Part shown: one piece after another, positions 6,762 to 54,755 of the stretch
Numbering within the stretch: position 1 is the stretch's first letter
How the letters are laid out: every line of letters starts with the position of its first letter
Assembly: GCA_039933635.1 (NCBI GenBank)
Contig: JBDTNQ010000001.1
Span: 27,967-91,966, forward strand
From: Acidobacteriota bacterium
GTDB taxonomy: Bacteria > Acidobacteriota > Vicinamibacteria > Vicinamibacterales > SCN-69-37
Reading direction: 5' to 3'
Length of the DNA: 64,000 nt
The notes under the pieces: generated by a model
What the model saw: the letters and a program-made list of their open reading frames with translations, nothing else
Told to the model about the DNA's origin: nothing
Database searches by the model: none
Position numbers and translations under genes: made by a program

Positions 6762-6763
6762 GG

Positions 6764-8810: not shown

Positions 8811-9803
8811 GTGCGAATCGACTCCTCGGCGCCGACCCGCATCGATCTGGCCGGCGGGACGTATGACATCTGGCCGCTCTACCTGTTTCACGATCGCGCA
8901 CAGACGCTGAACGTCGCGATCAGCCTCCGCGCCCACGTGACGCTGACCTCGCGGCGCGACTACCGCGTGGTGCTGTGCTCGGACGACACCGGCGAACAGG
9001 TCGAAGCGGCCGATCCGACCACACTCGGGACGGACCGGCTTCCACTGCTGGCGCGGCTCGTGAAGCACTTCGGCGCGCGGGGCCTCGAGGTGCGCACCCG
9101 CGCGGAGTCACCGGTCGGCGCCGGCATTGCCGGGTCGTCGGCCCTGAACATCGCGCTCACGGCCGCGCTGGCGGCCTGGACGGGCCGGACGCTCTCAGAC
9201 GACGCCCTGCTGACGACCGCGATGAATGTGGAAGCGCAAGTGATTGCTGTCCCGACCGGCGTGCAGGACTACCGTCCCGCCCTCTACGGTGGCGTGTCGG
9301 CCGTCGAACTCGGCGTGTCCGGCGTCCAACGCGTGCCCCTGGCCGTCGATCCGTTCGCCCTCGAGCGGCGCCTCGTGCTCGCCTACACGGGCGCGTCGCG
9401 AAATTCTGGGATCAACAACTGGGACGTGATGGTGCGGCGCATCAACGGCGACGCGGACGTCATTGCCGCCTTCGACGTGATTCGCGACTCGACGGTGTCG
9501 ATGCGCGAGTCGCTCGAGCAGCAGGACTGGACGGCGGTCGCGGCCTGCATGGCCTCCGAATGGCAGGCGCGCAAGCGCCTCGCCCCCGGCGTCACCACCC
9601 GCGAAATCGACACGCTACTCGAACGCGCGCGGTTCTCGGGCGCGCTCGCGGGCAAGGTCTGCGGCGCAGGGGGTGGCGGCTGCCTCGTGTGCCTCGTCGA
9701 TCCGGACCGCAAGACTGAAGTGGCCGCCACGCTCACCGCCGGCGGCGCCGCGGTGCTCCCGTTCAAGATCGAGCACGAAGGACTGGTCGTTCGACGGAGT
9801 TGA
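8811..9803 (+). CDS. GHMP-family sugar/metabolite kinase, substrate unknown
   Basis: GHMP motif PVGAGIAGSSALNIALTAALAAW; N-terminus APTRIDLAGGTYD; C-terminus GAGGGGCL. Confidence 0.75.
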   Translation: MRIDSSAPTRIDLAGGTYDIWPLYLFHDRAQTLNVAISLRAHVTLTSRRDYRVVLCSDDTGEQVEAADPTTLGTDRLPLLARLVKHFGARGLEVRTRAESPVGAGIAGSSALNIALTAALAAWTGRTLSDDALLTTAMNVEAQVIAVPTGVQDYRPALYGGVSAVELGVSGVQRVPLAVDPFALERRLVLAYTGASRNSGINNWDVMVRRINGDADVIAAFDVIRDSTVSMRESLEQQDWTAVAACMASEWQARKRLAPGVTTREIDTLLERARFSGALAGKVCGAGGGGCLVCLVDPDRKTEVAATLTAGGAAVLPFKIEHEGLVVRRS

Positions 9804-29600: not shown

Positions 29601-32063
29601 CTACCTGCCGCCAACGGTGACCGTGATCCCGGTTCGCAGCGTGGCGGGCAGCGCCGGGAAGCCCGCGCCGGCCTGATAGTCCTGGTTGAGCAGGTTCTCG
29701 ACGCTGAGGTACCACTTCGCGCGGGGATGAATCGTGTACGCCGCACTGAGATCGACCTTCTGAAATCCCGCGTCGAGGTTGTGGTTCGGCAGCAGCATCG
29801 ATGAACCGAAGAACTCGTCGCTCAGGAACGTGCTGTCGTCCTGTTTGCCGGAGAAGTATCCGGCGAGCACCACCTGAAACGGGCCCTGTACGAACCTGGC
29901 CATCAAACTGCCGGAATTGATGGGCCGCCGGAACGGTCGCGCGCCGACGAGCGGGGCGTACTGGCCGATCTGAATATTCGGGAACGCCGGGTTCACGGCC
30001 GGTGCGAGCACACCACCTGAAAGAGACTTCGTGACCTTTGCGTCGAGGAACGTGTACGACGCCATGAAGTTCACGTGCGACACCGATGCGTCGGCGGACA
30101 CTTCCACGCCCTGCGCGCGATATGACGATGAGTTGACATAGGCGCCGAAGCCGCTGGCATCAGCCGCCTGCTGAGAGATCGCCAGCTTCGTGAGCGCGCT
30201 GGCGCTGACGTACTCGATGAGATCCGAGAAGTTGTTGTGGAAGTAGGAGGCGCGTGCGCGCACGCGGCCACGCCACACCCCCTGTTCGACCCCGACATCA
30301 AATCCCGTGTTGCGTTCGGGGCCGATTGGATCCACACCCGCGACCGTGCCCTTGACGACGGTGAAGAGCGACGACAACTCCTGCGAGAGCGTCGGCGCCT
30401 TGATGCCCGTCCCGGCGTTGAACATCAGCTTCGTCTCACCAAGGCCGCTCGTGGCAGACGGCTTGCGCAGGTAAGCTGTCCCGGACAGACGGGGCGTGAC
30501 CGCCACACCGTACGTTTCGTTGTGGTCGACTGCAAGCCCCGCGGTCAACGCCAGGGAACGGCGGCCCACCTGAGCCTCGACAAATGCGCCGGCGTTGTTG
30601 CGCGTGGTCTTCGGCGGTGCCGTTGGATCGTCGTAGGAGGACTGCGACACACCGTACTCGTGCTCGATGCGGGCTCCTGCGGCGACGTTGAAGGCGGGCC
30701 TCAGGCGGTAGTTCGCCTGTCCAGACACGACGTGCCGTGTGGTGGTGGCATCGAACGGCTGCGGGTACACACCGCCGTAATCCAGAATCGCCCGGCCGGA
30801 CACTGAGTAGCCATTCGCGCCGGTGATCGTGACCTGGTCGCCGAGGTAGTTGCCACCGAACCCGAACGGGTCCGAATACTGGCCGGTCGGGGCCGGATTG
30901 GTCAGGTGATAGTCGCTGTGCAGCACGGCATAGCGGAGGCTCGTCTTCAACCGCGGCGAGACGCGTGTGTCCGCCTCGAGACTGAACATCTGGGCGTCCG
31001 CCTTCTTCGTGCTGTCATCCGCGACGCCGTAGAACGACGTCGCGTTCGGCAAACCGATGTGCGACGAACCGGCTCGGACCACCGCGCTGATGTCCGTCGA
31101 CGACCCGGCCGCAAATCCCAATCGGCTCGCGAACGTCCGTCGCTGATAGGCGTTGTTCGCGACGTCGTTGTCCGTGTCGAAATGCGAGAACGCGGCGAAG
31201 TAGTCCACCCGATTCGTCGCGCCGCCGACCGACAGGTCGTGGCGCTGCGTCCCCAGTGTCCCGCCGTCAATCGAGTAGGTTGCCTCCGGCACGCGCGTCC
31301 GTCCGCGCTGCGTGGTCAGGGCGACAACACCGGTCAGCGCATCGTTGCCGTAGAGCACGCTGTTCGCGTTCCGCAGGACCTCGATCCGCTCGACGCCGGT
31401 CGTGTCCACGTCGCCGAAATCAAAGACGCCGCCGATGTCGTTGGCCGGCACGCCGTCGATGAGGACCTTGTTGAACGCCGACGTGCCGCCACGGACGAAC
31501 AGCGATGCTGCGGTTCCGCGTCCGCCGACCTGCACCACGTTCACGCCGGGCACGAGCCGCAACGCTTCGGCGACGTCTGGCTTCGCGAGATCCGACAGCA
31601 GGCGTCGATCCAGCACGGTCACTGATGCCGCCACCTGTGACGCAGGCTGCGCTTCGGCCGTCGCGGTGACGACCACGACTTGAGCGACACCGATCGACAG
31701 CGTGACGTTCACCGGAACCTTCGCGCCGGTCGCAACGAAGAACGGATCGACGTGCGCCACCACGAATCCGGCGGCGTCCACTTGTAGCGCGTAGCGGCCA
31801 GCGTCGGCAGTGGCCATCGAGAAGTGTCCCTGGCCGTCGGTCCGGCCCTCCGCCACCGTCTGTCCGTCGCGCATCAGCGCGACGGTGGCGCCGGTCACCG
31901 CACCGCCAAGTTGATCGGTGACCGTGCCGGTCACCGTGCCGCTGCCATCTGCGGCCGCGTTCGCGGCGCCGACCATCGACGCGATGAAACTGAACAGGAC
32001 GACGAACGCGCGCATCGTCAGGCGACGAGCGGCGACACTACGGACGGGTGCGAACCAGGTCAT
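29601..32063 (-). CDS. TonB-dependent receptor with N-terminal CarboxypepD_reg domain, riboswitch-controlled (BtuB-like role inferred)
   Basis: ATG at 32063 with GGAGA 9 nt upstream, then a signal peptide ...MVGAANA. Plug motifs VTVLDRR..., IEVLRNANSVLYGNDALTGVV. Large beta-barrel. Confidence 0.85.
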   Translation of the reverse strand: MTWFAPVRSVAARRLTMRAFVVLFSFIASMVGAANAAADGSGTVTGTVTDQLGGAVTGATVALMRDGQTVAEGRTDGQGHFSMATADAGRYALQVDAAGFVVAHVDPFFVATGAKVPVNVTLSIGVAQVVVVTATAEAQPASQVAASVTVLDRRLLSDLAKPDVAEALRLVPGVNVVQVGGRGTAASLFVRGGTSAFNKVLIDGVPANDIGGVFDFGDVDTTGVERIEVLRNANSVLYGNDALTGVVALTTQRGRTRVPEATYSIDGGTLGTQRHDLSVGGATNRVDYFAAFSHFDTDNDVANNAYQRRTFASRLGFAAGSSTDISAVVRAGSSHIGLPNATSFYGVADDSTKKADAQMFSLEADTRVSPRLKTSLRYAVLHSDYHLTNPAPTGQYSDPFGFGGNYLGDQVTITGANGYSVSGRAILDYGGVYPQPFDATTTRHVVSGQANYRLRPAFNVAAGARIEHEYGVSQSSYDDPTAPPKTTRNNAGAFVEAQVGRRSLALTAGLAVDHNETYGVAVTPRLSGTAYLRKPSATSGLGETKLMFNAGTGIKAPTLSQELSSLFTVVKGTVAGVDPIGPERNTGFDVGVEQGVWRGRVRARASYFHNNFSDLIEYVSASALTKLAISQQAADASGFGAYVNSSSYRAQGVEVSADASVSHVNFMASYTFLDAKVTKSLSGGVLAPAVNPAFPNIQIGQYAPLVGARPFRRPINSGSLMARFVQGPFQVVLAGYFSGKQDDSTFLSDEFFGSSMLLPNHNLDAGFQKVDLSAAYTIHPRAKWYLSVENLLNQDYQAGAGFPALPATLRTGITVTVGGR

Positions 32064-32184
32064 GGGCGTCTGTCTCCACGCAGGAGCGGAAGACAAACCG
32101 CGGGAATGGGCGTACTGACGAGGCCTGGGACGGACGTCCCGACTCGCAGTCCGCTTTCTGATCGCCGCAGAAAGTCGTCCGCAG

Positions 32185-32360
32185 AACGTTCAGGTAGGTC
32201 TCCTGGCTTGGAAGGAGCGAGCGCATCTCTGCGTCGCTGGCGGCTTCACCTTCCCCGGTTTCACACCGAGTGGTTAGTTCGAAGCTGCCCCTTCACTTAC
32301 AGTGGCGGGACCGCGCCGGCTTTGCACCGGACTTCCCTGTTATGCCCTCGTGGGCACCTG
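32185..32360 (-). promoter_or_regulatory. Cobalamin (B12) riboswitch
   Basis: Minus strand reads ...AACAGGGAAGTCCGGTGCAAAGCCGGCGCGGTCCCGCCACTGT...GGTGTGAAACCGGGGAAGGTGAAGCC...AAGCCAGGAGACCTACCTG. The B12 box corresponds to plus-strand 32193..32208. It lies directly 5' of the TonB receptor gene. Confidence 0.85.
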
Positions 32361-32440
32361 AACACACAAAGCCTAGCACAGCGCCAGGCCGCGGAGCCCG
32401 GGTCTCTCGCGAAGGCGCCGGCTCCATGAGGTGCATCCGC

Positions 32441-33427
32441 TCAGAGAGCCAGCCAAAGAAGGACAACGCCTGCCGCGACAAGCCCCGAGGCAACGACCAC
32501 ACGGAGAGCGCGAAGGACGTCTGCGTGATCGCCTGCTGGTGGATCGAGCGGATCGCCAATCCAGACGGCCGTCACTTGCGCGCCCTTCATCCAGATCGGC
32601 CCGACGAGCCGACGTTGAATGGCTCCGGCCGTCGCGGCTTCGCTCCAGCCGGAGTTGGGCCCAGGCAGGACGGAGTGCTGGCGGAGGCCGCACGCGAACG
32701 CCTTGCGCGCGGATGCACCAGGAACGACGGCCGCGATGGCGGCAATCAGCAGCCATGTCAGTCGCGCGGGCACGAAGTTCAGTACGTCATCGAGACGCGC
32801 ACCGCACCATCCGAAGTCCAAGTAGCGCGGTGTCTTGTAGCCGACCATCGAGTCCATCGTGCTCACGATCTTGAACAGCAACAGGCCGGGCAGGCCGCCA
32901 AGGGCGTAGAAGAACAGCGGGCTCGTGAATCCGTCGGTCAGGTTTTCACTGAGGCTTTCGATCGAAGCGCGCCGGCATGCGGCCACGTCCATACGGTCCG
33001 TGTCACGTCCGACGAGCTGTGCGATCGCCACGCGCGCGCCGGCCTCGTTGCCTCGTGATGCCGCCGCGTCAACCCGTCTCACATGAAGAACGAGATCGCC
33101 CAGCGCCAGAAGGCTGTAGACCAGGGCCGCGTGAACGATCCACGCGGGCCACGCTCCGATCGATGTGACGGCCCAGCCAAGAATCGCCAGGACCCCGCCC
33201 CACGTGACGACGAGCAGCAGGAACAGTGCGATCCCGCCGCCCCGCCCGTCGAGTCCCCACGCGCGGAGCCGCGTCTCGAATGCCGTGAGCGTGGCGCCAA
33301 CGAGGCGTACCGGATGCCAGCGATATTCGGGGTCGCCAAAGACGAAGTCGAGCGCCACAGCCAGCGCAAGGGCGGACGCGCTGCCGGCCAGCCAGGCGAT
33401 CAGTTCGCGCGCCACTTCTCGCGCCAC
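32441..33427 (-). CDS. cbiB: Adenosylcobinamide-phosphate synthase
   Basis: LALAVALDFVFGDPEYRWHPVRLVG is the CobD/CbiB signature. GTG at 33427 is chosen as the start, with low certainty. Confidence 0.85.
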   Translation of the reverse strand: MAREVARELIAWLAGSASALALAVALDFVFGDPEYRWHPVRLVGATLTAFETRLRAWGLDGRGGGIALFLLLVVTWGGVLAILGWAVTSIGAWPAWIVHAALVYSLLALGDLVLHVRRVDAAASRGNEAGARVAIAQLVGRDTDRMDVAACRRASIESLSENLTDGFTSPLFFYALGGLPGLLLFKIVSTMDSMVGYKTPRYLDFGWCGARLDDVLNFVPARLTWLLIAAIAAVVPGASARKAFACGLRQHSVLPGPNSGWSEAATAGAIQRRLVGPIWMKGAQVTAVWIGDPLDPPAGDHADVLRALRVVVASGLVAAGVVLLWLAL

Positions 33428-34533
33428 CCAAGAGCGACGGCCGCAAGCACCAGCGTGCGTGGATCGGAGGCGCCGACCTCGTGCAATCGCGCGCGGAACT
33501 CGGGCCACCGCTCGGGCTGGGCCGCGAGGGCTACCGCGAGCGTCGCGGCCTGTCCGACGACCGCGTCGGGAATGACGGACGCCGGCAGTGTTTCATGCCG
33601 CGCGCGATCGAGCACCGCCGCCATCGCGTGGGCCGCAGCGCCAACGAGCGGCTCGTAGAAGGCGCTCTTGCTATTGCGCCGGAGCAGTTGCAGCGGCTCG
33701 GCTTCAAGGTGGGCACCGAGGTCGTCGAAGATCGACGCCTCCTTCACGCCGTACCGCCCGAGCGCGTGGAACAAGCCCCTCGTGTAGCTTGGCTCGAGGC
33801 CATTCTGCCACCGCAACGCTTCCATGGTCGCTCGTCTCACCGCGAGCCCGACGATCTCGCCGAACTTCATGTGAGGACTGGCCGACGTCAGGGGAAAATC
33901 ACCACTGAGGGGCGCGGCCAGGCAGAACTGATCCGTGCCGGTGCCGGTTGCGAGATCCTTGGAGGCGCAGCTTGGAACGGCCAGGCGTTGCAGCGCCGCC
34001 GACTTCCCTTCCGTCATGGTCACAATCGTGCGGGTCAGCGCGGACACTGTCACGGGCACGTCGACCAGGACCATGGTGTTGATGGTGCCCACGATCGGCG
34101 GCACCTTGACCACACCGTCGCGTGTCTCGCGCCATGACGCCGGATCGCCGGCACACGTCGCGTTGGTCTGCACGCCGCCCGTCACGACGGCGGTGACGAT
34201 GACGTCGCCGTCCTGCTCGGACGCGAGGGCGGTGTAGTTCATGTTGGCCGCCGTTCCCATGACGGCCGCTTCGTCTGGCGGCACGTCGACCTCGGCGCAG
34301 ACCTCATCGTGGTAGGCGTCCTGCCCTCCCGCCGTCACCGCGTGCGCACGCGCCTCGTGTCCCGATCCCTCGCAACTCTGATGATTGATGAGGTAGCGGA
34401 CGCGATCGGTTTGCCCGCCGTTCTTCGTGGAGGTGCTGAACACGGTGTGCGGCCCGTGCAGTTCGGCGACCACGAACCGTCCCCGGCGCCGGACGATGGC
34501 CGATGCGAGGCGCGCGAGGACTTCCCAGTGCAT
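33400..34533 (-). CDS. cbiZ: Adenosylcobinamide amidohydrolase (CbiZ-like) with a ~130-aa C-terminal extension
   Basis: ATG at 34533 (M94 of the ORF; the upstream part of the ORF runs through the tRNA gene). The CbiZ-like core includes TAVVTGGV...GTINTMVLVD...TMTEGKSAAL...ATGTGTDQ. Confidence 0.7.
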   Translation of the reverse strand: MHWEVLARLASAIVRRRGRFVVAELHGPHTVFSTSTKNGGQTDRVRYLINHQSCEGSGHEARAHAVTAGGQDAYHDEVCAEVDVPPDEAAVMGTAANMNYTALASEQDGDVIVTAVVTGGVQTNATCAGDPASWRETRDGVVKVPPIVGTINTMVLVDVPVTVSALTRTIVTMTEGKSAALQRLAVPSCASKDLATGTGTDQFCLAAPLSGDFPLTSASPHMKFGEIVGLAVRRATMEALRWQNGLEPSYTRGLFHALGRYGVKEASIFDDLGAHLEAEPLQLLRRNSKSAFYEPLVGAAAHAMAAVLDRARHETLPASVIPDAVVGQAATLAVALAAQPERWPEFRARLHEVGASDPRTLVLAAVALGWREKWRAN

Positions 34534-34653
34534 GCCGGCGATTATGCCCCAGGGGTTCAGAGCCCGGAGCTCGAGTCGCGGCTCTCGCTTCGGATTGCGA
34601 GCCGGTTGCGATATGCTTTTGCGGTTGCGCTCAGCGCCACACGGCCTGCCAGT

Positions 34654-34729
34654 GCCGAGGTAGCTCAGTTGGTAGAGCATACGACTGAAAATCGTAGTGT
34701 CGCCAGTTCGATTCTGGCCCTCGGCACCA
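34654..34729 (+). tRNA. tRNA-Phe (GAA)
   Basis: GCCGAGGTAGCTCAGTTGGTAGAGCATACGACTGAAAATCGTAGTGTCGCCAGTTCGATTCTGGCCCTCGGCACCA. Folds as a cloverleaf with anticodon loop CTGAAAA and encoded CCA. Confidence 0.95.
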
Positions 34730-34739
34730 CTCACTAAAC
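34684..34739 (+). repeat. attL: 56-bp direct repeat within and after tRNA-Phe
   Basis: actgaaaatcgtagtgtcgccagttcgattctggccctcggcaccactcactaaac, identical to 52367..52422. Confidence 0.9.
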
Positions 34740-35145
34740 AATTCAGCGACAATAAGTTGCAGGCCATCAGCGGATGCAGCGCCGCGAGCTCACGATCTCG
34801 ACGGGGTAGCACGCGGGTAACGACCCAAACGCAGTTCGTGATTTCCTTGAGCAGTGCCGCTCGGCAAGCGTCGCGCGCTTGCGCTCAGCGGCCACTGACC
34901 ATCGCTGCTCAGTGGCAACTGACCAAGGTTGGGAGCCGGCGGGGTGCCCGATAGCGCTGAGGGACTCTCGCGTATATCGCCATGGTCTGCAAATCGGGCC
35001 CGACAGCCCCTGAAGGGAAGGTCGGAACCTCTGGTCACGTTCCCGTGAGCAGAACGTCCTTCCCTGGTCGGGTTTCAAACGAGCGGCAACAGCCCCGGAC
35101 CGAGAGCGGCTGGAACAGGCGGCGCCTCGTGCACGGGTCACTACC

Positions 35146-35406
35146 TTACGACGGCATCGCGACGAGCCGCCACGCGTCGAGTTGTCGGATGAACTCAAGG
35201 ACGTCCTTTTCTAGTTCGTCCCTCGCCATATCGGGATACCTGGCCTGAACCGCCGCCGTGGCTTCGGCGGTCGATCGCCCGACGGCAATGGCTTCACAGA
35301 TCAGCGACCCGACCCTGTCGAGACCGTACATCTCTCCGGTGTCTGTATTCAGCAGCACACCGCCGTCTTCACGTCCCGCAAACTTGATGTTGGCTGAGAA
35401 GGTCAT
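35146..35406 (-). CDS. PqqD-family RiPP recognition element (lasso peptide B1)
   Basis: ATG at 35406 (ATGA overlap with the methyltransferase stop). GGVLLNTDTGEMYGLDRVGSLICEAI...EKDVLEFIRQL is PqqD-like. Confidence 0.8.
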   Translation of the reverse strand: MTFSANIKFAGREDGGVLLNTDTGEMYGLDRVGSLICEAIAVGRSTAEATAAVQARYPDMARDELEKDVLEFIRQLDAWRLVAMPS

Positions 35407-36182
35407 CGCGTACTCCTCGTCTTCGTAGCGTCTGTCTGCGCCCACATGATGGTGACGTCCTCGATCGTGTAGAGGTCGCTGGCGCCGAGCGGCCGCAGGC
35501 CATGACGCAGCGCGGCCGCGAACTGGCGCACACGCTCACCTAGTGTGTCAGCGGCGCAGTCCGGCATCGCTAGCCATAGCCCGACCGCCTGGCTGATCGT
35601 CAGTTGACGTCGCACGCGGAGCCGGCGGCAGCGCACGCGGCCGACCATGGCCGCCAGTAACTCGGCGGTGGTCCGCCGATCCGCATCCGGTGCCGGCGCA
35701 AATTCCGGAGACGGCGTCACGTACGGCCGGCTAATCTCCCGCGCCACGCGCATCCACGCCGACCATGTAATCATGCTGTCGAGGACGACGAGGCGGCCCT
35801 GGGCTCCGAGCAAAGACCGTGCTTCGGCAATCGACATCGGCCGATTCGTCCAGTGTACCGACTTCGGGAAGACGACAGCCGCGCAGGACCCGCCGATGAT
35901 CTCGCGTGCCCGCTCGGCGTGACCGACCTCGAATCTCGCCTTGACGCCTGCCCGCGCCCCCGTTCGACGCGCTTCCTCGACGAAGCTCCGCGCCGGATCG
36001 AGGCCGATGACTTCGTGGCCGCGGCGCGCCATCGCGAGGCTGCACTGCCCGGCGCCGCAGCCGATGTCGGCAATCCGGCTTCCTCCGGGAAGGTCGCCGA
36101 CGACCCAGTCGATGACGTCAGTCGTGTAGGGGTTGCTACACCTCGCCGCGTGCCACGCTGCCGGTCGTCCGGGCCTGGTCAT
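35403..36182 (-). CDS. Class I SAM-dependent methyltransferase
   Basis: Motif I IADIGCGAGQCSLAMARRGHEVIGLD. ATGA overlaps at both ends. Confidence 0.8.
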   Translation of the reverse strand: MTRPGRPAAWHAARCSNPYTTDVIDWVVGDLPGGSRIADIGCGAGQCSLAMARRGHEVIGLDPARSFVEEARRTGARAGVKARFEVGHAERAREIIGGSCAAVVFPKSVHWTNRPMSIAEARSLLGAQGRLVVLDSMITWSAWMRVAREISRPYVTPSPEFAPAPDADRRTTAELLAAMVGRVRCRRLRVRRQLTISQAVGLWLAMPDCAADTLGERVRQFAAALRHGLRPLGASDLYTIEDVTIMWAQTDATKTRSTR

Positions 36183-37681
36183 CGCTGAGGGGGCGGGAGA
36201 GGGCCAATGTCCGGCACTGGATCGGTGCCCCGCTTTTCAGCGGTCACGGCACAGTCAGACGCGAGTGGGCTCGCAACTTCTTGGTGTCCCCGCCCTCCGT
36301 TAGCGCATTCGAGCCGTGCCCGCGTCGGGAAGTGTGCAAAGGCCCTGGCGAGATCGATTCGTGTCGGCTCAGCGCGCTGCCCGGACGCGAGCTGCTCCCA
36401 TTGCCAGCGCCACACCTCCTCAAACTTGGGAACGATCACGTTCCAATCGAAATGCGCGATCGCACGGGAACGGCCGGCCTCGCCCATGCGGCGGCGGCAC
36501 TGTTCGTCTAGGAGCAACTGTCGTGTGGCAGCCATGAACGCCTCAAAATCGACGGAAGTCGCCTGGCTTAGCGCGCGTCTCGTCACCGCCTTGCTCTGCC
36601 ACGCCGCCCGTCGAGAGACGTCCGCCACGTGCGGCTGGCACCAGTGTGTTGGAATCAGCAAGCCCGTCTGTCCGTGCGAAACAATGTCGCGATATCCGCT
36701 CCAGTCCGACGCGACGACGGGCAGGCCGCAGGACATGGCCTCGAGCAGTGCGATGCCGAACGTCTCCTGGATGTTGTCCGAGGGCGAGACGCACACATCC
36801 CCGGCCGAGTAGATGTAGGTCTTCAAGTAGGGCGGGAAGTTCGGGACGATCGTGCAGGCAGTGCCCACGCCGGCCGTTGCAGCGGCCGTGCGCAACCGGT
36901 CCGCCCAGATGTTGTCGCAGTCCTGCCCGGCCACGAGCAGGTGGACGTCAATGCCGTCCTGTCGCAGCCTGCTGACGAGGCGGATCAAGACCGACAGGTC
37001 CGCCTTGTCGTCCCACGTCAACCGGCCGACATACACGAGGACGATCGCGTCGTCTGGGACCCGCAGCAACTGACGGGAGTGGCGCCGATCACGCGGGATC
37101 AACGCCTGCGTGTCGATGCCGATCGGGATTGTGTGAATAGCGGGTCCGTCCCCAGCTTGGCGGCGTCGGCCGAATCCGCGCGCCGCCAGACTGTCGGTGA
37201 CATCAGCCAGCAAGGTCTCGACCGTCGTCCGCCCGGCGACGCTGCTGATCACGATGGCGTCAAAAGCGTGGCCGAAGAGCAGCGTGTCAAGATACACGTC
37301 GAGGGACAGGTCGACGGTCGTAACGCACGCGCAGATCGAGAGACGGGCCCCGGTGCTCGCACGCAGCCGCCCTAACCCGCCGAACGCCAAGTGCTGATGA
37401 CAGAAGAGATAGTCGTGTCTAAGGATCTCAGCCGGCAGATCAGCGGCCGACCGTCGTCGCACGGTGGAGGGAATGCCTGTCGTCGTTCGATGCTGGCCGT
37501 CTTCGAAGTGGAACACGGCATAGCCGTCGGAACGCCGGGCGACCTGCTCGAGCAGGTCGTGTGCGAAGACCCATGTCCCGTTGCGATCGGCGGTCGACGT
37601 GGCGTGATGGTGGCGGACGTAAGGATCGATCCACCCGAGTCGCCGGCGCGGTTCCGTATCCCGACTAGTGACGTCGTTCAT
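36179..37681 (-). CDS. GT-B glycosyltransferase (Glycos_transf_1, GT4-like), 500 aa
   Basis: C-terminal E-x7-E region ETFGIALLEAMSCGLPVVASDWSGYRDIV..GQTGLL. 17-nt overlap with the cyclase gene. Confidence 0.8.
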   Translation of the reverse strand: MNDVTSRDTEPRRRLGWIDPYVRHHHATSTADRNGTWVFAHDLLEQVARRSDGYAVFHFEDGQHRTTTGIPSTVRRRSAADLPAEILRHDYLFCHQHLAFGGLGRLRASTGARLSICACVTTVDLSLDVYLDTLLFGHAFDAIVISSVAGRTTVETLLADVTDSLAARGFGRRRQAGDGPAIHTIPIGIDTQALIPRDRRHSRQLLRVPDDAIVLVYVGRLTWDDKADLSVLIRLVSRLRQDGIDVHLLVAGQDCDNIWADRLRTAAATAGVGTACTIVPNFPPYLKTYIYSAGDVCVSPSDNIQETFGIALLEAMSCGLPVVASDWSGYRDIVSHGQTGLLIPTHWCQPHVADVSRRAAWQSKAVTRRALSQATSVDFEAFMAATRQLLLDEQCRRRMGEAGRSRAIAHFDWNVIVPKFEEVWRWQWEQLASGQRAEPTRIDLARAFAHFPTRARLECANGGRGHQEVASPLASDCAVTAEKRGTDPVPDIGPLPPPQR

Positions 37682-39452
37682 GGCGCCACGGGTGCCGTTG
37701 CAAGTCTTTCAGCCAGCGCTCGACCGCGATCAGACGCAGCACAGAGAATGCGTCCGTTCCGATTCCCATCCGCACCTGCTCAAGGGCGTCGCGCGTCCTG
37801 CGATAGTCGACGTAACCTTCCCTCACGACGTTCGCGCGCGGAGAAATTAGCTGCAGCAGTGGCGTCCACTCCCGAGTCAGGGCGCGACAGACGTACCCGT
37901 CACCGCTTACTTTCGTGGTGCGCGTGGCGACAGCGGACGGCAGCAGTCGGCCGATACTAGCCCGCTGCAACGTGCGTGTCTGGCCGGCCGTGACCTTCCT
38001 GTCAAACGGCATCGCGAGCATGAACTGAACGACGCGGCGATCCAGGAAAGGGCTACAAACGTCTATGTCAGCGGTCGTACGGAACGAGTGATAAGCGCTC
38101 ACCCGCATGGCCTGCGCGATGTGCCGTCTGGACACGCGCCAGGCGTTGCTGGCATGTCGATCGGCCTCGCCGTCACGGACGGACTGGCGCGAAGTGTGCG
38201 AATCGGGCGTCAGCCAGCCTGGCAGCGGAAGACGGACCCGCTTCCACGATTTCACCAGGTCCCGATGCAGCACCTGCCAGTACGTTAGGCCTGTCGCAGC
38301 GGCTATGGCCCGGGCCGTTCGATGGCAGACGCTCAGTTGGCCGCGCCGGAGCTCGTCGACAAGGTGTGGGGCCGTGGACAGACTCCACATGACGGCATCC
38401 CCGCCATGACCTCGCAGCAGACAAGCGCCGCCTTCGCCCTTTAATAGTCGGGACACATGAAGTGTGCGGCCGAGGTTCGGAATGGGACGCGGAAAGGGCG
38501 CGGTCTCGTCAAACCCGAAGGCCGTATAGTCTCGCTCGCCGATCTGCTTATTCACGACCGATGTCGCGCGGACAACGGCCTCCATGTAAGGGCGTTCATC
38601 GTCGGGATGTCCGGCATCGTGCACATACGAAAGCGTCTTCGGCGTACCGAGGGCCTGTTCTTGGGCAATGCGAGCGGCAATGCAGACGACTGAGGAGGAA
38701 TCGAGGCCGCCGCTCAGTTCCGCCCAAGTGCCGGGACGAAGACGGCATCGCACAGCCTCACGGAGCCGGTCCCACAGAGCCTCTTCGTAGTCGGCGCCTC
38801 GTCGAAACTCGACGCGATCCTCGGGAGAGGGCAACCATCCGATCGAGCGGCGAATTCCCGATGAGGTGAATTGCAGAACGTACCCGGGCGGCACGACGGA
38901 CACGTCGAGATACGGCGATTGATCCTGGGCGGGATCGTCGGCGATGAAGCGATAGACGTAGGCGCGGTCCACCGCGGGCGCCGCCTCCGTCGTGAAGAAC
39001 GAGCGCAGATCGGAAGACCACTCGATGGTGTCGCCGCGCCGCTTGAAGTAAAGGGGGCGCGCCCCGGCGAAGTCTCTGGCAAGGATCATGGTCCGGGCGT
39101 CCCGGTGCCACAGCGCGACGGCCCAGTCACCAATCAAGCGCTCGAAGGCCTCCGCCCCCCAGGTGACGTAAGCGGCAGTCACGACCGCTTCGTCGTCGCA
39201 TTGCCGCGAGTCGAGCCCCAAGCGGGCGACCAGTGACTCCTTGTTGTCTAGCCGTCCGTCCCACATGATCGATGGCATCCCGGTGCCATCGACGGGTGCG
39301 CTCCACCCCGAAACGGCAGACGCTGTCGGACGTGGAGGCTGACCCGCGCCAAGCCGGATTCTGGCATCGGTGGCCCGGCCATTGCTGAAATCGGCCCAGC
39401 CAGCCACACGCGGGCTCCATGCGTCGAACACCGAGCGCGACACGGCGTTCAT
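37665..39452 (-). CDS. Asparagine-synthetase-like lasso peptide cyclase (C protein)
   Basis: 595 aa. PP-loop ELSGGLDSSSV; N-terminal AsnB-like domain (IGDWAVALW...ILARDFAGARPLYF). ATGA overlap with B2. Confidence 0.85.
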   Translation of the reverse strand: MNAVSRSVFDAWSPRVAGWADFSNGRATDARIRLGAGQPPRPTASAVSGWSAPVDGTGMPSIMWDGRLDNKESLVARLGLDSRQCDDEAVVTAAYVTWGAEAFERLIGDWAVALWHRDARTMILARDFAGARPLYFKRRGDTIEWSSDLRSFFTTEAAPAVDRAYVYRFIADDPAQDQSPYLDVSVVPPGYVLQFTSSGIRRSIGWLPSPEDRVEFRRGADYEEALWDRLREAVRCRLRPGTWAELSGGLDSSSVVCIAARIAQEQALGTPKTLSYVHDAGHPDDERPYMEAVVRATSVVNKQIGERDYTAFGFDETAPFPRPIPNLGRTLHVSRLLKGEGGACLLRGHGGDAVMWSLSTAPHLVDELRRGQLSVCHRTARAIAAATGLTYWQVLHRDLVKSWKRVRLPLPGWLTPDSHTSRQSVRDGEADRHASNAWRVSRRHIAQAMRVSAYHSFRTTADIDVCSPFLDRRVVQFMLAMPFDRKVTAGQTRTLQRASIGRLLPSAVATRTTKVSGDGYVCRALTREWTPLLQLISPRANVVREGYVDYRRTRDALEQVRMGIGTDAFSVLRLIAVERWLKDLQRHPWRHERRH

Positions 39453-39868
39453 ACCTGATCTATGACGGTGAACTGCGTCAGGTCCTCAGCGAAACCAAAG
39501 ACCTGCCGATCGCTCACTACCCAGGCATGCGCAAAGAAAGGCGCCACTCTGACGCCGATCTTCATCTGCGCAGGCACCGAGTGCCGCCGGAGAATCCTGG
39601 TGAAGACGGCGGCGCGACCCAGACAGCGGACGTTCCGCGGCAGGCAGTCCAGAGTCCGCTCAATGACGGCCACGTGGATCTTGAGATCTCGCTGGGGTGC
39701 CCCCGACGCAACTGCCGTGTCCCGCACCCACGCGCGAACGCCTCCGAATCCCCGGAACCGCAGGATCGCCAAGTACGCGCAGGCCTCGCCCACGGCAAGC
39801 ACGACATATTGCAGTTTGGAGGCGGTCGACACCACGTGTTTCCCCTGCGTTCCCGAAGTGACAGCCAT
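39449..39868 (-). CDS. Transglutaminase-like leader peptidase (lasso peptide B2)
   Basis: ATG at 39868 (M82 of the ORF). CLPRNVRCLGRAAVFTRILRRHSVPAQMKIGV....FFAHAWVVSD matches the Cys/His/Asp core of the PF13471-type B2 family. Confidence 0.8.
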   Translation of the reverse strand: MAVTSGTQGKHVVSTASKLQYVVLAVGEACAYLAILRFRGFGGVRAWVRDTAVASGAPQRDLKIHVAVIERTLDCLPRNVRCLGRAAVFTRILRRHSVPAQMKIGVRVAPFFAHAWVVSDRQVFGFAEDLTQFTVIDQV

Positions 39869-39900
39869 CCTGGCGAGCGGGTCGCCAGGATGGCTGGCGT

Positions 39901-40008
39901 CTACACCATGCGCGTCTCGTTGTCCGCGTCGAGGATGCTCGAACCTCCGCCGAGGACGAGTACAGCCGCATTGCCCAGACGAACGATCGTTGGCTTCACG
40001 TAAACCAT
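39901..40008 (-). CDS. Candidate lasso peptide precursor (35 aa)
   Basis: ATG at 40008 is preceded by GGGAGGTGG at 6 nt. The sequence is MVYVKPTIVRLGNAAVLVLGGGSSILDADNETRMV. The leader fits Y-x2-P-x-(L/I)-x3-G-x5-(T)-x. The core starts with Gly and has Asp at core position 8. The gene lies 32 nt upstream of B2. Confidence 0.65.
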   Translation of the reverse strand: MVYVKPTIVRLGNAAVLVLGGGSSILDADNETRMV

Positions 40009-40493
40009 AGCGTGCCACCTCCCTTCGAATCGCAATATGCCCGATACCATCGCTCCGCCTGTCACCGCGCCGGCTGCGCCAGGACGGTCGCGTTCGCGCG
40101 CGTGAGAACAAAGTCGGCAGAGATGATTGGCTCGCACAGTGTCTGGCTGCTTTTGAACAATGTCAAGACCAAAATCGACTCAGATCACATTACTACTGTG
40201 TACGACTAAGTATGAATATGCGACTCTATACGACAGTATGCGACGGGCAACGACACGAGCGACAGGAAGTACTTAGACTCCGGTTGACGGATTGCCAGAA
40301 GCCTATTGGCGAGGCACCCGAAGGCATGGCAGAACAAGTTCGCCGGCCGTTGCGAACGTAAAGAACCAGAAAGATTCTATCTACAAACTGCTACTGCTCG
40401 AAGAATCCGCTTGACACACAATGGATGACGCAAGACCATCGCCAGAAGAACAAAGCTCTTCGTGCTAGCTGGAACGCAAGCGGTTCGCCGTTC

Positions 40494-42392: not shown

Positions 42393-43288
42393 TGACGTTT
42401 GTCACGATCGCGACGAGACGCTATCTACCGATGGCGCTGCAGCTCGCGGCTACCATTCGTGCCGCCGACCGTTCGGCTGAGATCTGGCTGTGGCTGGCCG
42501 AACCGCCCCAGGCTTGTTGCGTGGTGCCGGAAGGGCTCTTCGACCGGGTCCTCGTGGCGGAGGAATGGATCGGCACGGCGATGCGGGAGTTCGTCCGGTC
42601 CCATGACGAACTGGAAGCGTGTTGCGGGTTGAAGCCCACCGTGCTGCTAACGACCATGGACCTCAAGCGTGAGGAGCGCCAGTTCGTCCTCATCGATGGC
42701 GATGCCTGGGTCTTTGGCCCCTTCGACGAGGTCGCGCGGGCCCTCCAGACGTCAGACGTCGTCCTGACGCCGCACCTGCTCGAGGCCGAGGCGACACGGG
42801 CGGCAAGCGATGATCTAAGAAAGAGCCTGCGATGGGGCGTCTGTAATCTTGGCTTCATCGCGGTCCGGCAGGGAGCGCGCGGCCGCGAAGTCCTGGAGTG
42901 GTGGCGTGAGCGCTGCCTGGATGCGTGTACGGTCGATCCGGCGTCGGGCCTCTTTCTGGATCAGAAGTGGATGGACCTCGCGCTGGCGTTCGACGGTGTC
43001 GCCGCCTTGCGCCATCCTGGCTACAACGTCAATCCGACGAACGCGGCGGCCCGGGGCGTGTCGAGTGCGGGGGGCAGACTGGTCGCTGGAGCAGATCGCC
43101 TGCCCGTTCGGTTCGTCCACTTCTGCGGATTTGGTCGAAGCGTACGTCCGACGACAATCTTCGACGCGTGCAACGAAGGCTCGCCTCTCAGGCGCCTCGT
43201 CGAGGAGTACGACGCCGTGCTGCAGAAGATGGATTTCGCGGTGACTAGGACACGGCCGTGGGGCTACGCGAGTGCCCTCAACGGGTGA
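42392..43288 (+). CDS. Putative GT-A-fold nucleotide-sugar transferase
   Basis: The ATG overlaps the TAA of the VWA gene. DxD-like FVLIDGDAWVF; FLDQKWMDL motif. The family assignment is tentative. Confidence 0.45.
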   Translation: MTFVTIATRRYLPMALQLAATIRAADRSAEIWLWLAEPPQACCVVPEGLFDRVLVAEEWIGTAMREFVRSHDELEACCGLKPTVLLTTMDLKREERQFVLIDGDAWVFGPFDEVARALQTSDVVLTPHLLEAEATRAASDDLRKSLRWGVCNLGFIAVRQGARGREVLEWWRERCLDACTVDPASGLFLDQKWMDLALAFDGVAALRHPGYNVNPTNAAARGVSSAGGRLVAGADRLPVRFVHFCGFGRSVRPTTIFDACNEGSPLRRLVEEYDAVLQKMDFAVTRTRPWGYASALNG

Positions 43289-45317
43289 GTACGTGAGCTC
43301 GCGACGTCGCGCCCGGGATGCTCGACCGCCGCGCCGACGCCGGCGCCTCGCCGTCGTGACCCGCGAATGGCCGGGCGTCACGCCGGTGTCGACGATTGGA
43401 TACGTTCAGGCCGCGCTGGCGCATGATCGCGCCCGACGCGGCGCGGATGTCACGGTCCTGCTCGTGTCCGAGGGCACCGTGCTACAGCAGCCAGCCACTG
43501 TCCACCTGAACGACCGGTTGCATTTGGTTCATTTTTCGATCCCCAATCGCCCGTCCTTCAGCGGCCCATCCGGTGCCCATCACATCTACCAGCGGCTGAT
43601 CGGTGACCCGTGGGATGAGCTGTTCTTCGTCGAGCGGGGTGGTGATGCATATTGTGTCGTTCAGGCGAAATACCTCGGATTGGGATTTCGAAACTCGCGC
43701 GTCACGGTGGCTGTTCATGGTCCGACGGTCTGGTCCGAACTGAGTGCGGGCCGCCCCATCGCCGACAACACGCTGCTCGAGCGCGATTGGCTCGAGCGAC
43801 AGAGCGTTGCGCTGGCCGATCGCGTCGTGCTTCCATCCACCGAACATCGCCGCTGGTTGAGACAGTGGGAATGGACGTCGAAAGGCACTGTAGAGATCGA
43901 CGCCGGCTGGCTGGAATCCGCAGGAAGCCATAGCTCCGCTGAACACCGGCCCCATGTGCATCCTGTGTTCGGCATCGCGTTCATCGTGTCGGCCGGGCAT
44001 TGGGCGTCGGCTGTCGCTTTGCGACGTGCCCTGATTCAGGTGACGCGCTCAGGAGTGATCACGCCCGATCGACTCGCGATCGAGTTTCGACAGACGGAAT
44101 TCTCGGCTCCGGTGGCGAACGAGTGGATGCGGTTGGTCCGGCAGTCGTGTCCTGATATCCAGCAGGTCGATGCCCAGAGCTCGGCGGGTGGCGATCCGGC
44201 ATGGCTTCCGTGTGTCATGCCGTCGTCGACGTTCTATCCTCACGAGACCCTACAGCTTCTCAGAACCGGCCGACCGTTCGTCGTCGTCTCGCCAGAGCCA
44301 ATGCGGTCTATCCGCCCGTCTGATCGGGCAGCCGCCGCGGCCGCGTTCGATGCGGATTCAATCGCGAGCCTGTGTTGCAGAGTGCTGGCGGGAGGGGTTC
44401 GTAGTCCGTATCCGGCGACGCCGAACCTGCATACCGCCAGGCTCCGGGGTAGGGTGACGACGAGGCCGCGGGCGCTCGAACGCAACGATCCGCGCTGGAC
44501 GCCGAAGGTGTCCGTGATCATCGGAACGCTCAACCGACCGCGCGCGCTTCTTCAAGCCGTCGACTCGATTCGCGCGCAGACTTACCCCGAGATCGAGCTG
44601 ATCGTGATCGACGACGGCAGCGACGCGGGCGATGCCATGGCCGTACTCGATGCGCTGGCCGGTGATTTCGAGGCGCGTACGTGGAAGATCCTGCGACGTC
44701 AGCCCGGTGCCTCCGGGCTTGCGCGCAACATGGCGGCCGCCCTCGCAACCGGCGAATGGCTGTTGTTCATGGACGATGATAACGTCGCGAAGCCTGAGGA
44801 GGTGGACGTGTTCGTGCGCGCCGCAGTTCACTCAGGAGCTGACATCCTGGTTTGTGGCTACGACGCCTTCGAGGGGCAGGGATCCGCTCCGCCGGCGGTG
44901 CCCATTGTGCAGCGGTGGATGCCCTTCGGCGCCGCGCTACCGATCGCTCTCCTTGAGAACCGGGTCGGCGATGCCAACATGTGCGTGCGGCGCGCGGTGT
45001 TCACGAAGCTCGGCGGCTTTGCCCACCCGCCAGGGTCCGGCATGCTCGAGGATTGGGGCTTTCTGCTGAAAGCCATGGCCGCTGGCGTATCGGTTGAAGT
45101 CGTGCCTGAGTGTCTCTACTTCTACCGCCGGGTAGCTCGACCTGAACGCTCGCTAGTACGCGACAACGTGGGACTGCTGGCAGCGATCGGTCCCCTGATC
45201 TCGACGCTTCGGCCCGCAGAGAGGCTGCTGGCCATCTACGCCGCCGCGCTGCCTCGCGCGGTTCAGCGCAGGCTCGAAGCGTCGACGCAACAGCGTCCGC
45301 CCGACTTCCAGGGGTGA
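43272..45317 (+). CDS. Two-domain glycosyltransferase: N-terminal GT-B-like, C-terminal GT2
   Basis: GT2 motifs VSVIIGTLNRP...IELIVIDDGSD...LLFMDDDN. The N-terminal half is GT4-like (RLAVVTREWPGVTPVSTIGY). Confidence 0.7.
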   Translation: MPSTGEYVSSRRRARDARPPRRRRRLAVVTREWPGVTPVSTIGYVQAALAHDRARRGADVTVLLVSEGTVLQQPATVHLNDRLHLVHFSIPNRPSFSGPSGAHHIYQRLIGDPWDELFFVERGGDAYCVVQAKYLGLGFRNSRVTVAVHGPTVWSELSAGRPIADNTLLERDWLERQSVALADRVVLPSTEHRRWLRQWEWTSKGTVEIDAGWLESAGSHSSAEHRPHVHPVFGIAFIVSAGHWASAVALRRALIQVTRSGVITPDRLAIEFRQTEFSAPVANEWMRLVRQSCPDIQQVDAQSSAGGDPAWLPCVMPSSTFYPHETLQLLRTGRPFVVVSPEPMRSIRPSDRAAAAAAFDADSIASLCCRVLAGGVRSPYPATPNLHTARLRGRVTTRPRALERNDPRWTPKVSVIIGTLNRPRALLQAVDSIRAQTYPEIELIVIDDGSDAGDAMAVLDALAGDFEARTWKILRRQPGASGLARNMAAALATGEWLLFMDDDNVAKPEEVDVFVRAAVHSGADILVCGYDAFEGQGSAPPAVPIVQRWMPFGAALPIALLENRVGDANMCVRRAVFTKLGGFAHPPGSGMLEDWGFLLKAMAAGVSVEVVPECLYFYRRVARPERSLVRDNVGLLAAIGPLISTLRPAERLLAIYAAALPRAVQRRLEASTQQRPPDFQG

Positions 45318-53249: not shown

Positions 53250-54755
53250 CTAGATCGGCGCCGTCAGCTCGGGCATCGGCCGCGCGGTGAAGAGACGCCG
53301 GCAGGGATTGGCAATCCACCGCGCCCACTGCGCCGAGCGCCCGACGCGCGCACTATCCGTCGCAATCCCGGTGTTGGCGTACATCTGTCGATAGAGCTTG
53401 GAGATCAGCACGAACGCCAACCGCGACTTGAGGGACTGCACGCACTGCGAACGATTCCAGATGCTCCCCAGGCTGTAGAACTGATCCCAGGCCCGCTGCG
53501 TTCCGCGGCGGATGTCGTCGGCCGACATCGTCGGATGCGGCGTGTAGACCTTGGGCCGCTGCCCCTGCGGAATCAGCCAGTGCCGGGTCAGCGGCACGCC
53601 CGCGATGCGCGTGGGATCGTCGGCCATCGATTTTTCCCACACGGCGAAGTCGTTGGTGCCCGGAAACGGCGTGAGCATCACGAACTGGGCGAAGGTCACA
53701 CCCGCCTGTTTCGCCACGGCCACCGTCGCGTCGAACGTCAAGTCGTGATCGCTCGGCAGACCGAAGATGAATGACCCCAGCACGTGCACGCCGTGCTCCT
53801 TGAACCCACGCAGGCGCTCGACGAGCTGCTCCCCCGCGACGTTGAACCCCTTGTGCACGTCCTTGAGCCCCTCGGCGGACACCGACTCGATGCCTACGAG
53901 CGCGCCCTTGATGCGCGCCTTGCGCATCGCCTCGAGGAACTCGGGATCCTCGGCTGATTCCATCGTGATTTGCGTGAAGAAGACCATGTCCGACGGCAGC
54001 GCCGCCAGCCGTCGCATCAGATCGAAGCGATCGGCGCGGATGGTGCTGAGCGTATTGAACGAAGTTTGATCGACCTTCCGAGCCGCCATCTTCAGATCGG
54101 TGAGGGTGACGGGATAGAAGTTGTCGTCCGCGAGCGCAATGAAGCGGAAGCCCTTGCGTCGCAACGCGACGATTTCCCCAATCACGCGATCGTTCGGACG
54201 TTGACGTGGGCGCTGACCATCGGTCTTCCAGACCGAACAGAACGAGCAGTGCTTCGGACACCCGCGGACCGTCTGCACCGACGCCCACATGTACCGGTTT
54301 TCCGGCATCAGATCCCACCGCGCCGGGAGCAGGTCCTCAGGTTCGACGCGTCCGCCTTCGTACACTCGCTGGAGTCGCCCCGCAGCGGCGTCGTCGAGCG
54401 CCTGGGCCCAGGCCAGATCTCCGTCCCCTTTGACCACCGCGTGCGCGCCGCCGATCTCGTGGACTTCCTCGGGATACAGCGTGGCGTGGATGCCGCCGTA
54501 GATCACGGTCGCGCCGGCATTGCGCGCCAGCCGCCCGATCTCGTACCCACGTAACGCGTTCCCGGTGTGAATACCGATGCCGACGATGTCGCCCGGGACG
54601 ATGACGGTCGGGTCCAGCGGTTCGAGCGTCTCGTCGGTGATGACTGGGTCGCCGAAGTGGCGCGGCGTGGCTTCCGCCAGCACGTACAGCCAGCGAGGGG
54701 TAATGACGCCAATGCCAAATGACACGTGGCTGGGATTGATCAGATGAATGCTCAC
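53250..54755 (-). CDS. B12-binding-domain radical SAM protein (class B)
   Basis: N-terminal B12-binding Rossmann-like domain (DIVGIGIHTGNALRGYEI). Radical SAM cluster motif VRGCPKHCSFCSVW. GTG start overlaps the Rrf2 TGA. Confidence 0.85.
   Translation of the reverse strand: MSIHLINPSHVSFGIGVITPRWLYVLAEATPRHFGDPVITDETLEPLDPTVIVPGDIVGIGIHTGNALRGYEIGRLARNAGATVIYGGIHATLYPEEVHEIGGAHAVVKGDGDLAWAQALDDAAAGRLQRVYEGGRVEPEDLLPARWDLMPENRYMWASVQTVRGCPKHCSFCSVWKTDGQRPRQRPNDRVIGEIVALRRKGFRFIALADDNFYPVTLTDLKMAARKVDQTSFNTLSTIRADRFDLMRRLAALPSDMVFFTQITMESAEDPEFLEAMRKARIKGALVGIESVSAEGLKDVHKGFNVAGEQLVERLRGFKEHGVHVLGSFIFGLPSDHDLTFDATVAVAKQAGVTFAQFVMLTPFPGTNDFAVWEKSMADDPTRIAGVPLTRHWLIPQGQRPKVYTPHPTMSADDIRRGTQRAWDQFYSLGSIWNRSQCVQSLKSRLAFVLISKLYRQMYANTGIATDSARVGRSAQWARWIANPCRRLFTARPMPELTAPI

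Follow-up and report, generated by a model that had tools for sequence, protein, structure and literature searches.

Among the closest described relatives of the system analysed here are the Bsf-type lasso peptide clusters. In Bradymonas, the precursor BsfA carries a natural isoleucine at leader position -2 that is required by BsfB1 and BsfB2 (Duan 2023, PMC10368454). Lasso precursors with Ile or Val at this position were predicted in the same work across Acidobacteriaceae and Sphingomonadales, and earlier predictions of such leaders, by Tietz 2017 and Kretsch 2023, are cited there (PMC10368454). BsfB2 barely cleaved the I(-2)V variant of BsfA (PMC10368454). Here we analyse a 64,000-nucleotide (nt) stretch of an acidobacterial contig (JBDTNQ010000001.1; hereafter the window), in which a small gene, A, on the minus strand at 39901..40008 encodes a 35-residue peptide with a natural Val(-2). 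We consider it probable that gene A belongs to a class II-type lasso precursor operon in a Vicinamibacterales-like soil member of the Acidobacteriota, for which steps from expression to tailoring can be proposed. The locus shares with Bsf of Bradymonas sediminis and with the predicted Ile/Val(-2) precursors the split B1/B2 arrangement, the leader spacing and a beta-branched aliphatic residue at -2, and it shares its phylum, Acidobacteriota, with the Acidobacteriaceae set (PMC10368454). However, Bsf-type clusters encode an HPr-kinase-like kinase, joined in bsf by a nucleotidyltransferase, and yield phosphorylated peptides, whereas the window operon encodes a GT4-family glycosyltransferase (GT) and a class I methyltransferase (MT) and no kinase (PMC10368454). 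The Bsf-type cores are unrelated to that of the window, and the motif DADN is absent from the supplementary precursor lists of Duan 2023 (PMC10368454).

Glycosylation of lasso peptides has been shown in two systems, as far as the literature searched goes, and these use different enzyme types. The davasin cluster of Streptomyces davaonensis, like the window, contains a dedicated glycosyltransferase, IgtG (Sun 2025, PMC11912497). IgtG is an actinomycete polysaccharide-deacetylase/GT2 fusion, assayed in microsomes, that places sugars on Ser (PMC11912497). In contrast, the window enzyme is a GT-B-fold GT4 protein paired with an MT and has no GT2 or deacetylase domain; the cores are unrelated. Pseudomycoidin of Bacillus pseudomycoides is also a lasso peptide with hexoses, but its sugar sits on the phosphate of a C-terminal Ser and is attached via a kinase and the nucleotidyltransferase PsmN (PMC9266682), whereas the window operon encodes no kinase or nucleotidyltransferase and its core has no C-terminal Ser. 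In a review of June 2026, the text speaks of glycosylation on Ser alone, and the pseudomycoidin paper is among the references (PMC13352647). With lassomycin, which bears a C-terminal methyl ester, and with lihuanodin and cellulonodin-2, which form an aspartimide driven by isoaspartyl O-methyltransferase (PIMT), the window has in common a lasso-cluster MT dependent on S-adenosylmethionine (SAM) and a substrate rich in Asp; the MTs of these three systems are PIMT homologues, whereas the window MT belongs to Methyltransf_25/11 and has no PIMT match (PMC9266682, PMC11912497).

In ring size, tail length (7-8 residues), lack of Cys and overall size, the predicted window peptide resembles short Gly1-Asp8 class II peptides. 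Those of the sungsanpin and chaxapeptin type, with 15 residues, have a Gly1-Asp8 ring; they come from actinomycetes and have Thr(-2) leaders, aromatic plugs and no tailoring genes, whereas the window tail, ADNETRMV, is acidic and polar with Arg and Met as its only bulky residues. Both peptides are named in a review that describes huascopeptin as the shortest lasso peptide and also names mycetohabin-15/-16 (PMC7549694). A preliminary description of the window had singled out the 16-residue core as short; the length is right, and short, but lies inside the published range that these peptides span.

The minus-strand translation of 39901..40008 reads MVYVKPTIVRLGNAAVLVLGGGSSILDADNETRMV*, that is, a 19-residue leader, MVYVKPTIVRLGNAAVLVL, followed by a 16-residue core, GGGSSILDADNETRMV. 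The preliminary description had given these coordinates with an exact translation but had omitted the strand. Because the window has a guanine-cytosine (GC) content of 66% and abounds in mechanical open reading frames (ORFs), including ones of 220 and 78 residues that overlap the precursor region, an open frame alone is no proof of a gene. A leave-one-out hidden Markov model (HMM), trained on 16 homologous precursors from other sources with the window peptide excluded, matched the precursor ORF alone among 1408 six-frame window segments (60.6 bits, E 7.6e-18), the next best segment reaching E 2.3. Comparison of gene A with its homologues gave ratios of nonsynonymous to synonymous differences (pN/pS) of 0.12-0.48 (pN 0.10-0.33; pS 0.69-0.86, with synonymous sites near saturation), values that show purifying selection on the predicted ORF. 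On this comparative evidence, the ORF is a genuine, selected, peptide-coding lasso precursor gene, as had been proposed, and the only precursor in the 64-kb window.

Two local signals accompany gene A. The strong Shine-Dalgarno (SD) sequence that had been cited in support of its translation, GGGAGGTGG (40015..40023, minus strand), is indeed there, with a GGAGG core ending 9 nt ahead of the ATG, and purine-rich SD-like stretches of the AGGAG, GGAG or GAGG type lie upstream of most homologous precursors. A stem-loop with a perfect 15-base-pair stem and without a U-tract (39862..39896, minus strand) begins 5 nt past the precursor stop. None of 200 shuffles was as stable as this hairpin (minimum free energy -33.8 kcal/mol, z -4.0), and nearly all homologous precursors have a strong stem-loop after the stop codon, though the sequences are unrelated. 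The hairpin is probably a partial terminator or an mRNA-stabilising element that sets the ratio of A to the enzymes. A scan uncalibrated for Acidobacteria found no sigma-70-like promoter upstream of the precursor.

We assembled 23 related precursors from the contigs of cyclase relatives and from a profile search run exhaustively over 1.84 billion representatives; a word-indexed protein search returned three called precursors only, and the exhaustive search was needed for about 20. The contigs of the cyclase relatives contain, beside B1, B2 or C, small ORFs similar to the window peptide in both leader and core, and all 12 precursors with a readable genomic context adjoin PqqD, Transglut_core3 or Asn_synthase genes. 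The check that had been proposed, an alignment of homologous precursors, thus finds the ORF conserved beside lasso genes and no other precursor candidate in the window. In the leader, Tyr(-17), Pro(-14) and Gly(-8) are invariant (23/23 each), Ala(-6) occurs in 21/23, position -2 is aliphatic throughout (Ile in 16, Val in 7) and position -1 is variable (Leu in 16, Gln in 4). Gly opens the core in all 23 precursors.

Nineteen members of this set have what we term DADN-type cores, and all counts of core positions below refer to these. Gly1 and Asp8 are invariant (19/19), position 2 is variable (G/S/T/A/M/N), and Gly3 is found in 17/19 (Thr in P0127, Met in L010). The tail is conserved at Ala9 (16/19), Asp10 (18/19; Ser in P0126), Asn11 (16/19), Thr13 (15/19), position 14 (His, Arg or Lys in 14/19, Pro in three relatives) and position 15 (Leu or Met in 18/19). 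Core length is exactly 16 residues in 17/19, and the family follows the pattern G-x-G-x4-D-A-D-N-x-T-[HRK]-[LM]-x. Literature searches on the core motif, and on lasso peptides together with Acidobacteria and glycosyltransferase, returned nothing relevant. Judged by its sequences, the DADN-type set is an undescribed, rare lasso family of Acidobacteriota type, characterised by a G1/D8/D10 core, an LDADNxT tail motif and recurrent linkage to a GT. Neither the single-sequence back-translated patterns derived from the cyclase nor the precursor alignment had a match among 185,579 representative genomes, and in the JGI metagenome collection the alignment found one locus only, L007; this may reflect true rarity of the family or under-sampling of such tiny genes and of short contigs.

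Given cleavage between L19 and G20, the leader residues Y3-P6-I8-G12-V18 correspond to Y(-17), P(-14), I(-12), G(-8) and V(-2). The motif Y-x-x-P-x-[LIV]-x3-G, which is read by the RiPP (ribosomally synthesised and post-translationally modified peptide) recognition element (RRE), is present with cleavage 17 residues past the Tyr, and it is invariant or conservatively substituted in 23/23 precursors. The spacing equals that of the experimentally cleaved BsfA (Tyr-17, Pro-14, Leu-12, Ile-2; PMC10368454), in line with the earlier statement that the leader fits lasso RRE recognition. In this register the core has 16 residues, Gly is core residue 1 and Asp core residue 8 (within the range of 7-9 for lasso cores), and N11-E12-T13 is present. 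The invariance of G1 and D8, the 16-residue cores and the BsfA-like spacing therefore make cleavage at L19|G20 with a Gly1-Asp8 macrolactam, a predicted 8-membered ring, the best-supported register. The preliminary description had preferred the same assignment, with Gly20 as core residue 1; the other Gly registers that it had listed are weakened by the contrast between G1 and D8 (19/19) and a variable G2 and a G3 at 17/19.

Thr is absent at -2 in the window peptide and in all its relatives. The Val there had been presented as a departure from the near-invariant Thr, and it is present as described; for this lineage, however, it is no surprise, since the family has Ile or Val in 23/23 and Ile/Val(-2) leaders are already published (PMC10368454). 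Val(-2) is a true family trait, not a new one, and it falls into a published exception class that does not disqualify the precursor. As the natural residue in 7/23 precursors, Val stands in contrast to the poor cleavage of the I(-2)V variant by BsfB2.

Gene A is the first of six minus-strand genes in the order A-B2-C-GT4-MT-B1, an operon of about 4.9 kb. B2 (39449..39835, minus strand; about 128 residues from a provisional GTG start) is predicted to be the leader peptidase, a transglutaminase-like Cys protease (PF13471 1.5e-17; NF033537 lasso_biosyn_B2, 63 bits vs a cut-off of 33), and its family alignment shows an invariant Cys (CLxR) and His (HAWV). The putative lasso cyclase C (37665..39452, minus strand; 595 residues), an Asn-synthetase-like protein (PF00733/GATase_7), matches the NF033535 lasso cyclase model at E 3.4e-61, under that model's exception-level cut-off; its nearest relatives among 5.8 billion proteins have 36-40% identity and are located in lasso clusters. 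We note that the cyclase start is ambiguous: the 595-residue form ATGA-overlaps the B2 stop, but alignment with homologues begins only after its first ~60 residues, and the public call starts from M59 (537 residues). The GT (36179..37681, minus strand; 500 residues) is a GT-B protein with Glycos_transf_1 (PF00534 2.5e-27) and GT4-conflict (PF20706 5.4e-07) matches. Solved GT4 enzymes such as Tll1590, GlgM, MshA and PimA match it in the donor domain only, which also resembles SPS-like GT4 enzymes, and Pfam has no family for its N-terminal ~175 residues. The MT (35403..36182, minus strand; 259 residues) is of the class I SAM-dependent type (PF13649 6.1e-13, PF08241 9.7e-11), with Methyltransf_25/11/31 and generic class I matches; small-molecule MTs are its closest structures, and Pfam, NCBIfam and structure comparison gave no PIMT match. 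The last gene, B1 (35146..35406, minus strand; 86 residues), encodes a PqqD-like RRE (PF05402 2.5e-14), the family profile of which matches the solved lasso RREs of TbiB1 (5V1U, 9.2e-16) and TfuB1 (6JX3, 1.9e-12).

B1, B2 and C are thus all present in one overlapping operon. Start-stop ATGA overlaps occur at the B2/C, GT/MT and MT/B1 junctions, and C and GT overlap by 17 nt; through this translational coupling, GT and MT are tied into the stretch of the operon that separates the cyclase from the essential RRE. No kinase domain was found by Pfam/NCBIfam in the six operon genes or their immediate neighbours. The placement of B1 as the last operon gene, the post-stop hairpin and the family-wide D10 go beyond the preliminary description. 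The gene order itself differs from A-B1-B2-C of the relatives, a rearrangement by which the tailoring genes come to be flanked on both sides by an essential maturation gene. In three other loci the precursor lies downstream of the cyclase and not at the cluster head (L009 9074-9190, L010 ~8870-8993, L004 7933-8169); the L010 copy is surrounded by insertion sequences, with neither B1 nor B2 inside a distance of 7 kb.

Eight DADN-type loci have enough sequence downstream of C for their tailoring genes to be compared, and six of these (the window, L001/L002, L003, L006, L009 and L011) carry a Pfam-significant GT in the cluster. A GT4 and a class I MT are encoded together in the window, L006 and L011, with weak homologues of the window MT following the GT in the latter two. 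GT4 orthologues lie 3' of C in L009 (44% identity over 452 residues), which has the GT4 only, and in L002 (37%); the L001/L002 enzyme has a probable MT-like C-terminal domain, with only four sub-threshold MT matches. L003 combines a B12-radical SAM enzyme with a GT2 and a GT4, L014 has a sub-threshold GT2 match only, and L010 contains many insertion sequences and no GT, B1 or B2. L004, the one sequenced cluster in which the family's leader type precedes another core, encodes an ABC transporter but lacks a GT. Linkage of a GT to DADN-type loci, usually with a methylating enzyme, is robust as regards the GT. All four MT matches of the L002 C-terminal extension being sub-threshold, we rejected it as a proven methyltransferase. 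In L003, the B12-binding radical SAM enzyme (6001-7455), GT2 and GT4 come after an ABC transporter, and this radical SAM enzyme may replace the class I methyltransferase of the window.

These data suggest a pathway from gene to product. Expression, for which sequence and conservation speak directly, would start from the precursor's own strong SD, and the post-stop hairpin probably ensures that more A is made than enzyme. By its canonical spacing and by homology, the leader would be bound by the RRE B1 through Y(-17), P(-14) and I(-12), and the Cys/His protease B2 would cut at L19|G20, tolerating Val(-2) as its relatives take Ile or Val. C would then join the Gly1 amine to the Asp8 side chain, leaving an 8-residue ring and an 8-residue tail, ADNETRMV. 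Gene linkage suggests that the GT4 and the class I MT may modify the conserved tail D10-N11-x-T13; as to the chemistry, one may speculate about O-glycosylation of Thr13 and methylation of the sugar or of a carboxylate. A sugar O-linked to Thr13 would be the simplest guess, one that conservation does not settle. The methyl acceptors that had been suggested, the C-terminal carboxylate and the Asp/Glu side chains, are no more than guesses. In its fullest form, this proposal makes the DADN-type peptides a new lasso subclass, in which D10-N11-x-T13 would be glycosylated by a GT4 with a novel peptide-binding N-terminal domain and then methylated on the sugar or a carboxylate, with the sugar serving as plug. 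We put this forward tentatively, as a possibility with somewhat less than an even chance of being right.

Several observations count against the pathway as outlined. The NCBIfam model NF033521 lasso_leader_L3 scores the window peptide at 17.1 bits (E 0.0041), below its cut-off of 19; 19/23 family members match the same model at E <= 0.1, the best at 1.2e-5. None of the RNA runs checked for the locus contains it. The operon has no transporter gene, in contrast to the MacB/FtsX or ABC genes of most relatives. The tail offers, as had already been pointed out, only Arg14 and Met15 as residues bulky enough for plugs, and three relatives have Pro at position 14; the window peptide need not adopt a stably threaded fold. 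Isopeptide bond, threading, sugar and methyl group are all predictions from gene content and alignment. Finally, the cores encoded with orthologous GT4s (window, GGGSSILDADNETRMV; L001, GGGEYQLDADNQTHLD; L009, GSGFLSMDGDGQGHVEGGE) have no Ser, Thr or Asn position in common, so that conservation does not identify the acceptor, and the substrate of the GT may be something other than the peptide.

Alternative readings can be ranked against this evidence. That the precursor ORF is a chance open frame, with the true precursor elsewhere, would suit a 66% GC window rich in spurious ORFs, two of which overlap the region, but it is scarcely credible in the face of a unique and highly significant HMM match with no other window candidate, 22 homologues of which all 12 with readable context adjoin lasso genes, purifying selection, and a conserved SD and hairpin; the HMM result and the codon comparison refute it. 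It is also very unlikely that B2 cleaves the same precursor after Gly21, to give a 14-residue core, GSSILDADNETRMV, in which a Gly3-Asp10 ring of eight residues would leave a tail of six. G3 (17/19) and D10 (18/19) are well conserved and also lie eight residues apart; against this register, G1 and D8 are found without exception, while G3 is replaced in P0127 and L010 and D10 in P0126. The shift would moreover move Pro and Tyr from the canonical and validated -14 and -17 to -16 and -19, and would leave a tail very short for threading. It would also put the invariant Gly at -2. We know of no precedent for Gly at this leader position. Cleavage at L19|G20 with a Gly1-Asp8 ring thus stays the preferred register.

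The acceptor of the sugar, if there is one on the peptide, is a separate matter. N11-E12-T13 had been proposed as a sequon, and Ser4/Ser5 as further glycosylation sites; the latter positions are not conserved in the family, whereas the triplet is present and N-x-[ST] recurs in 14/19 cores. N-glycosylation of Asn11 by the co-encoded GT would account for this frequency, which exceeds the expectation for a random 16-mer, and for Asn11 itself (16/19). However, the triplet lies within the longer block L7-D8-A9-D10-N11-x-T13-[HRK]14-[LM]15, so its conservation need not reflect a sequon. The peptide nearest to that of the window, P0124, has N-E-N (and Pro14), P0126 has N-Q-E, and L009, the bearer of the best GT4 orthologue, has G-Q-G at this site. 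The known bacterial N-glycosyltransferases that read N-x-S/T are the HMW1C-like NGTs (GT41) and PglB (GT66). The operon encodes no GT41 or GT66 transferase, its Pfam/NCBIfam matches being to GT4 families only. With the exceptions among the relatives, the unconserved Ser4/Ser5 and a GT4 enzyme, the specific sequon reading is weak, and we regard it as unlikely. More weight, though still on the doubtful side, falls to the idea of a true lasso precursor with a plain class II product, the GT4 and MT acting elsewhere, e.g. on a cell-envelope glycan or lipid for immunity or export. The products of the nearest characterised GT4s (MshA, PimA, GlgM, SPS-like) are small molecules, lipids or glycans; the MT, of a generic class I kind, has small-molecule MTs as its closest structures; and the cores with orthologous GTs share no universal hydroxyl or amide acceptor. 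This idea sits less well with the translational coupling of GT and MT between C and the essential RRE, with the recurrence of GTs of two families in 6/8 DADN-type loci and their absence from L004, where the same leader precedes another core, and with the acceptor-side N-terminal domain of the GT, which is unlike any Pfam family and would fit an unusual acceptor.

Some members of the wider set depart from the pattern of a single short core. P0134 (86 residues) contains, in one ORF, two tandem leader-plus-core cassettes with leaders of this family, MTYENPNVLEIGKAEDVILG-FMQTVTNVDGTASDKRRP... followed by EYEAPAALEVGNAEEVILG-AIHTVTNIDGNASDKRRP...; it may represent a pair of genes fused in frame or else a lasso precursor with the unusual number of two copies. 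In P0127, P0133 and P0139 the same Ile/Val(-2) leader precedes Cys-rich cores, e.g. GGGCCPGDCCCCGQHCGGDLEGFDEDE and ...DADNESCLSCCCGSPGGCDCE, which may be multi-disulfide or metal-binding lasso variants.

As to the host, the Ffh protein of the window shares 88-97% identity with proteins from metagenome-assembled genomes of Vicinamibacterales and Acidobacteriota. Four rhizosphere metagenomes carry the locus unchanged; their contigs are identical to the window and therefore hold no variant information. On its 3' side, the lasso operon is bounded by tRNA-Phe(GAA) (34654-34729, plus strand). This tRNA sits within a mechanical 470-residue ORF (33400-34812), and the CbiZ gene must therefore begin further in. 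Beyond the tRNA gene, a cobalamin riboswitch (RF00174, 106 bits; 32176-32376, minus strand) lies upstream of a BtuB-like TonB-dependent receptor (29601-32096), with CbiB (32441-33508) and CbiZ adjoining, so that a B12 salvage unit abuts the lasso operon. We rejected the cobalamin genes as cluster members, given the intervening tRNA gene and their own riboswitch; the salvage unit is probably unrelated to the operon. Elsewhere in the window are a 681-residue GT2 protein with a weak GT4-like N-terminus, adjoining a GMC oxidoreductase (43272-45317, plus strand), and a separate 501-residue radical SAM gene (53250-54755, minus strand).

In sum, for the question of how the penultimate leader residue is read by B1 and B2, the locus contributes a substrate/protease pair in which Val(-2) is natural. 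Lasso peptides are prized as hyper-stable scaffolds and antibiotics, and secondary tailoring among them is rare. If the proposal of a glycosylated DADN-type subclass is true, the sugar would be the missing steric plug for a tail of small residues, and the product would be the first GT4-tailored RiPP of this class as well as the first characterised lasso peptide from Vicinamibacteria. The compact six-gene operon, together with about 20 natural core variants, would then offer a route to a new peptide-glycosylating GT4/MT pair from an under-explored phylum.

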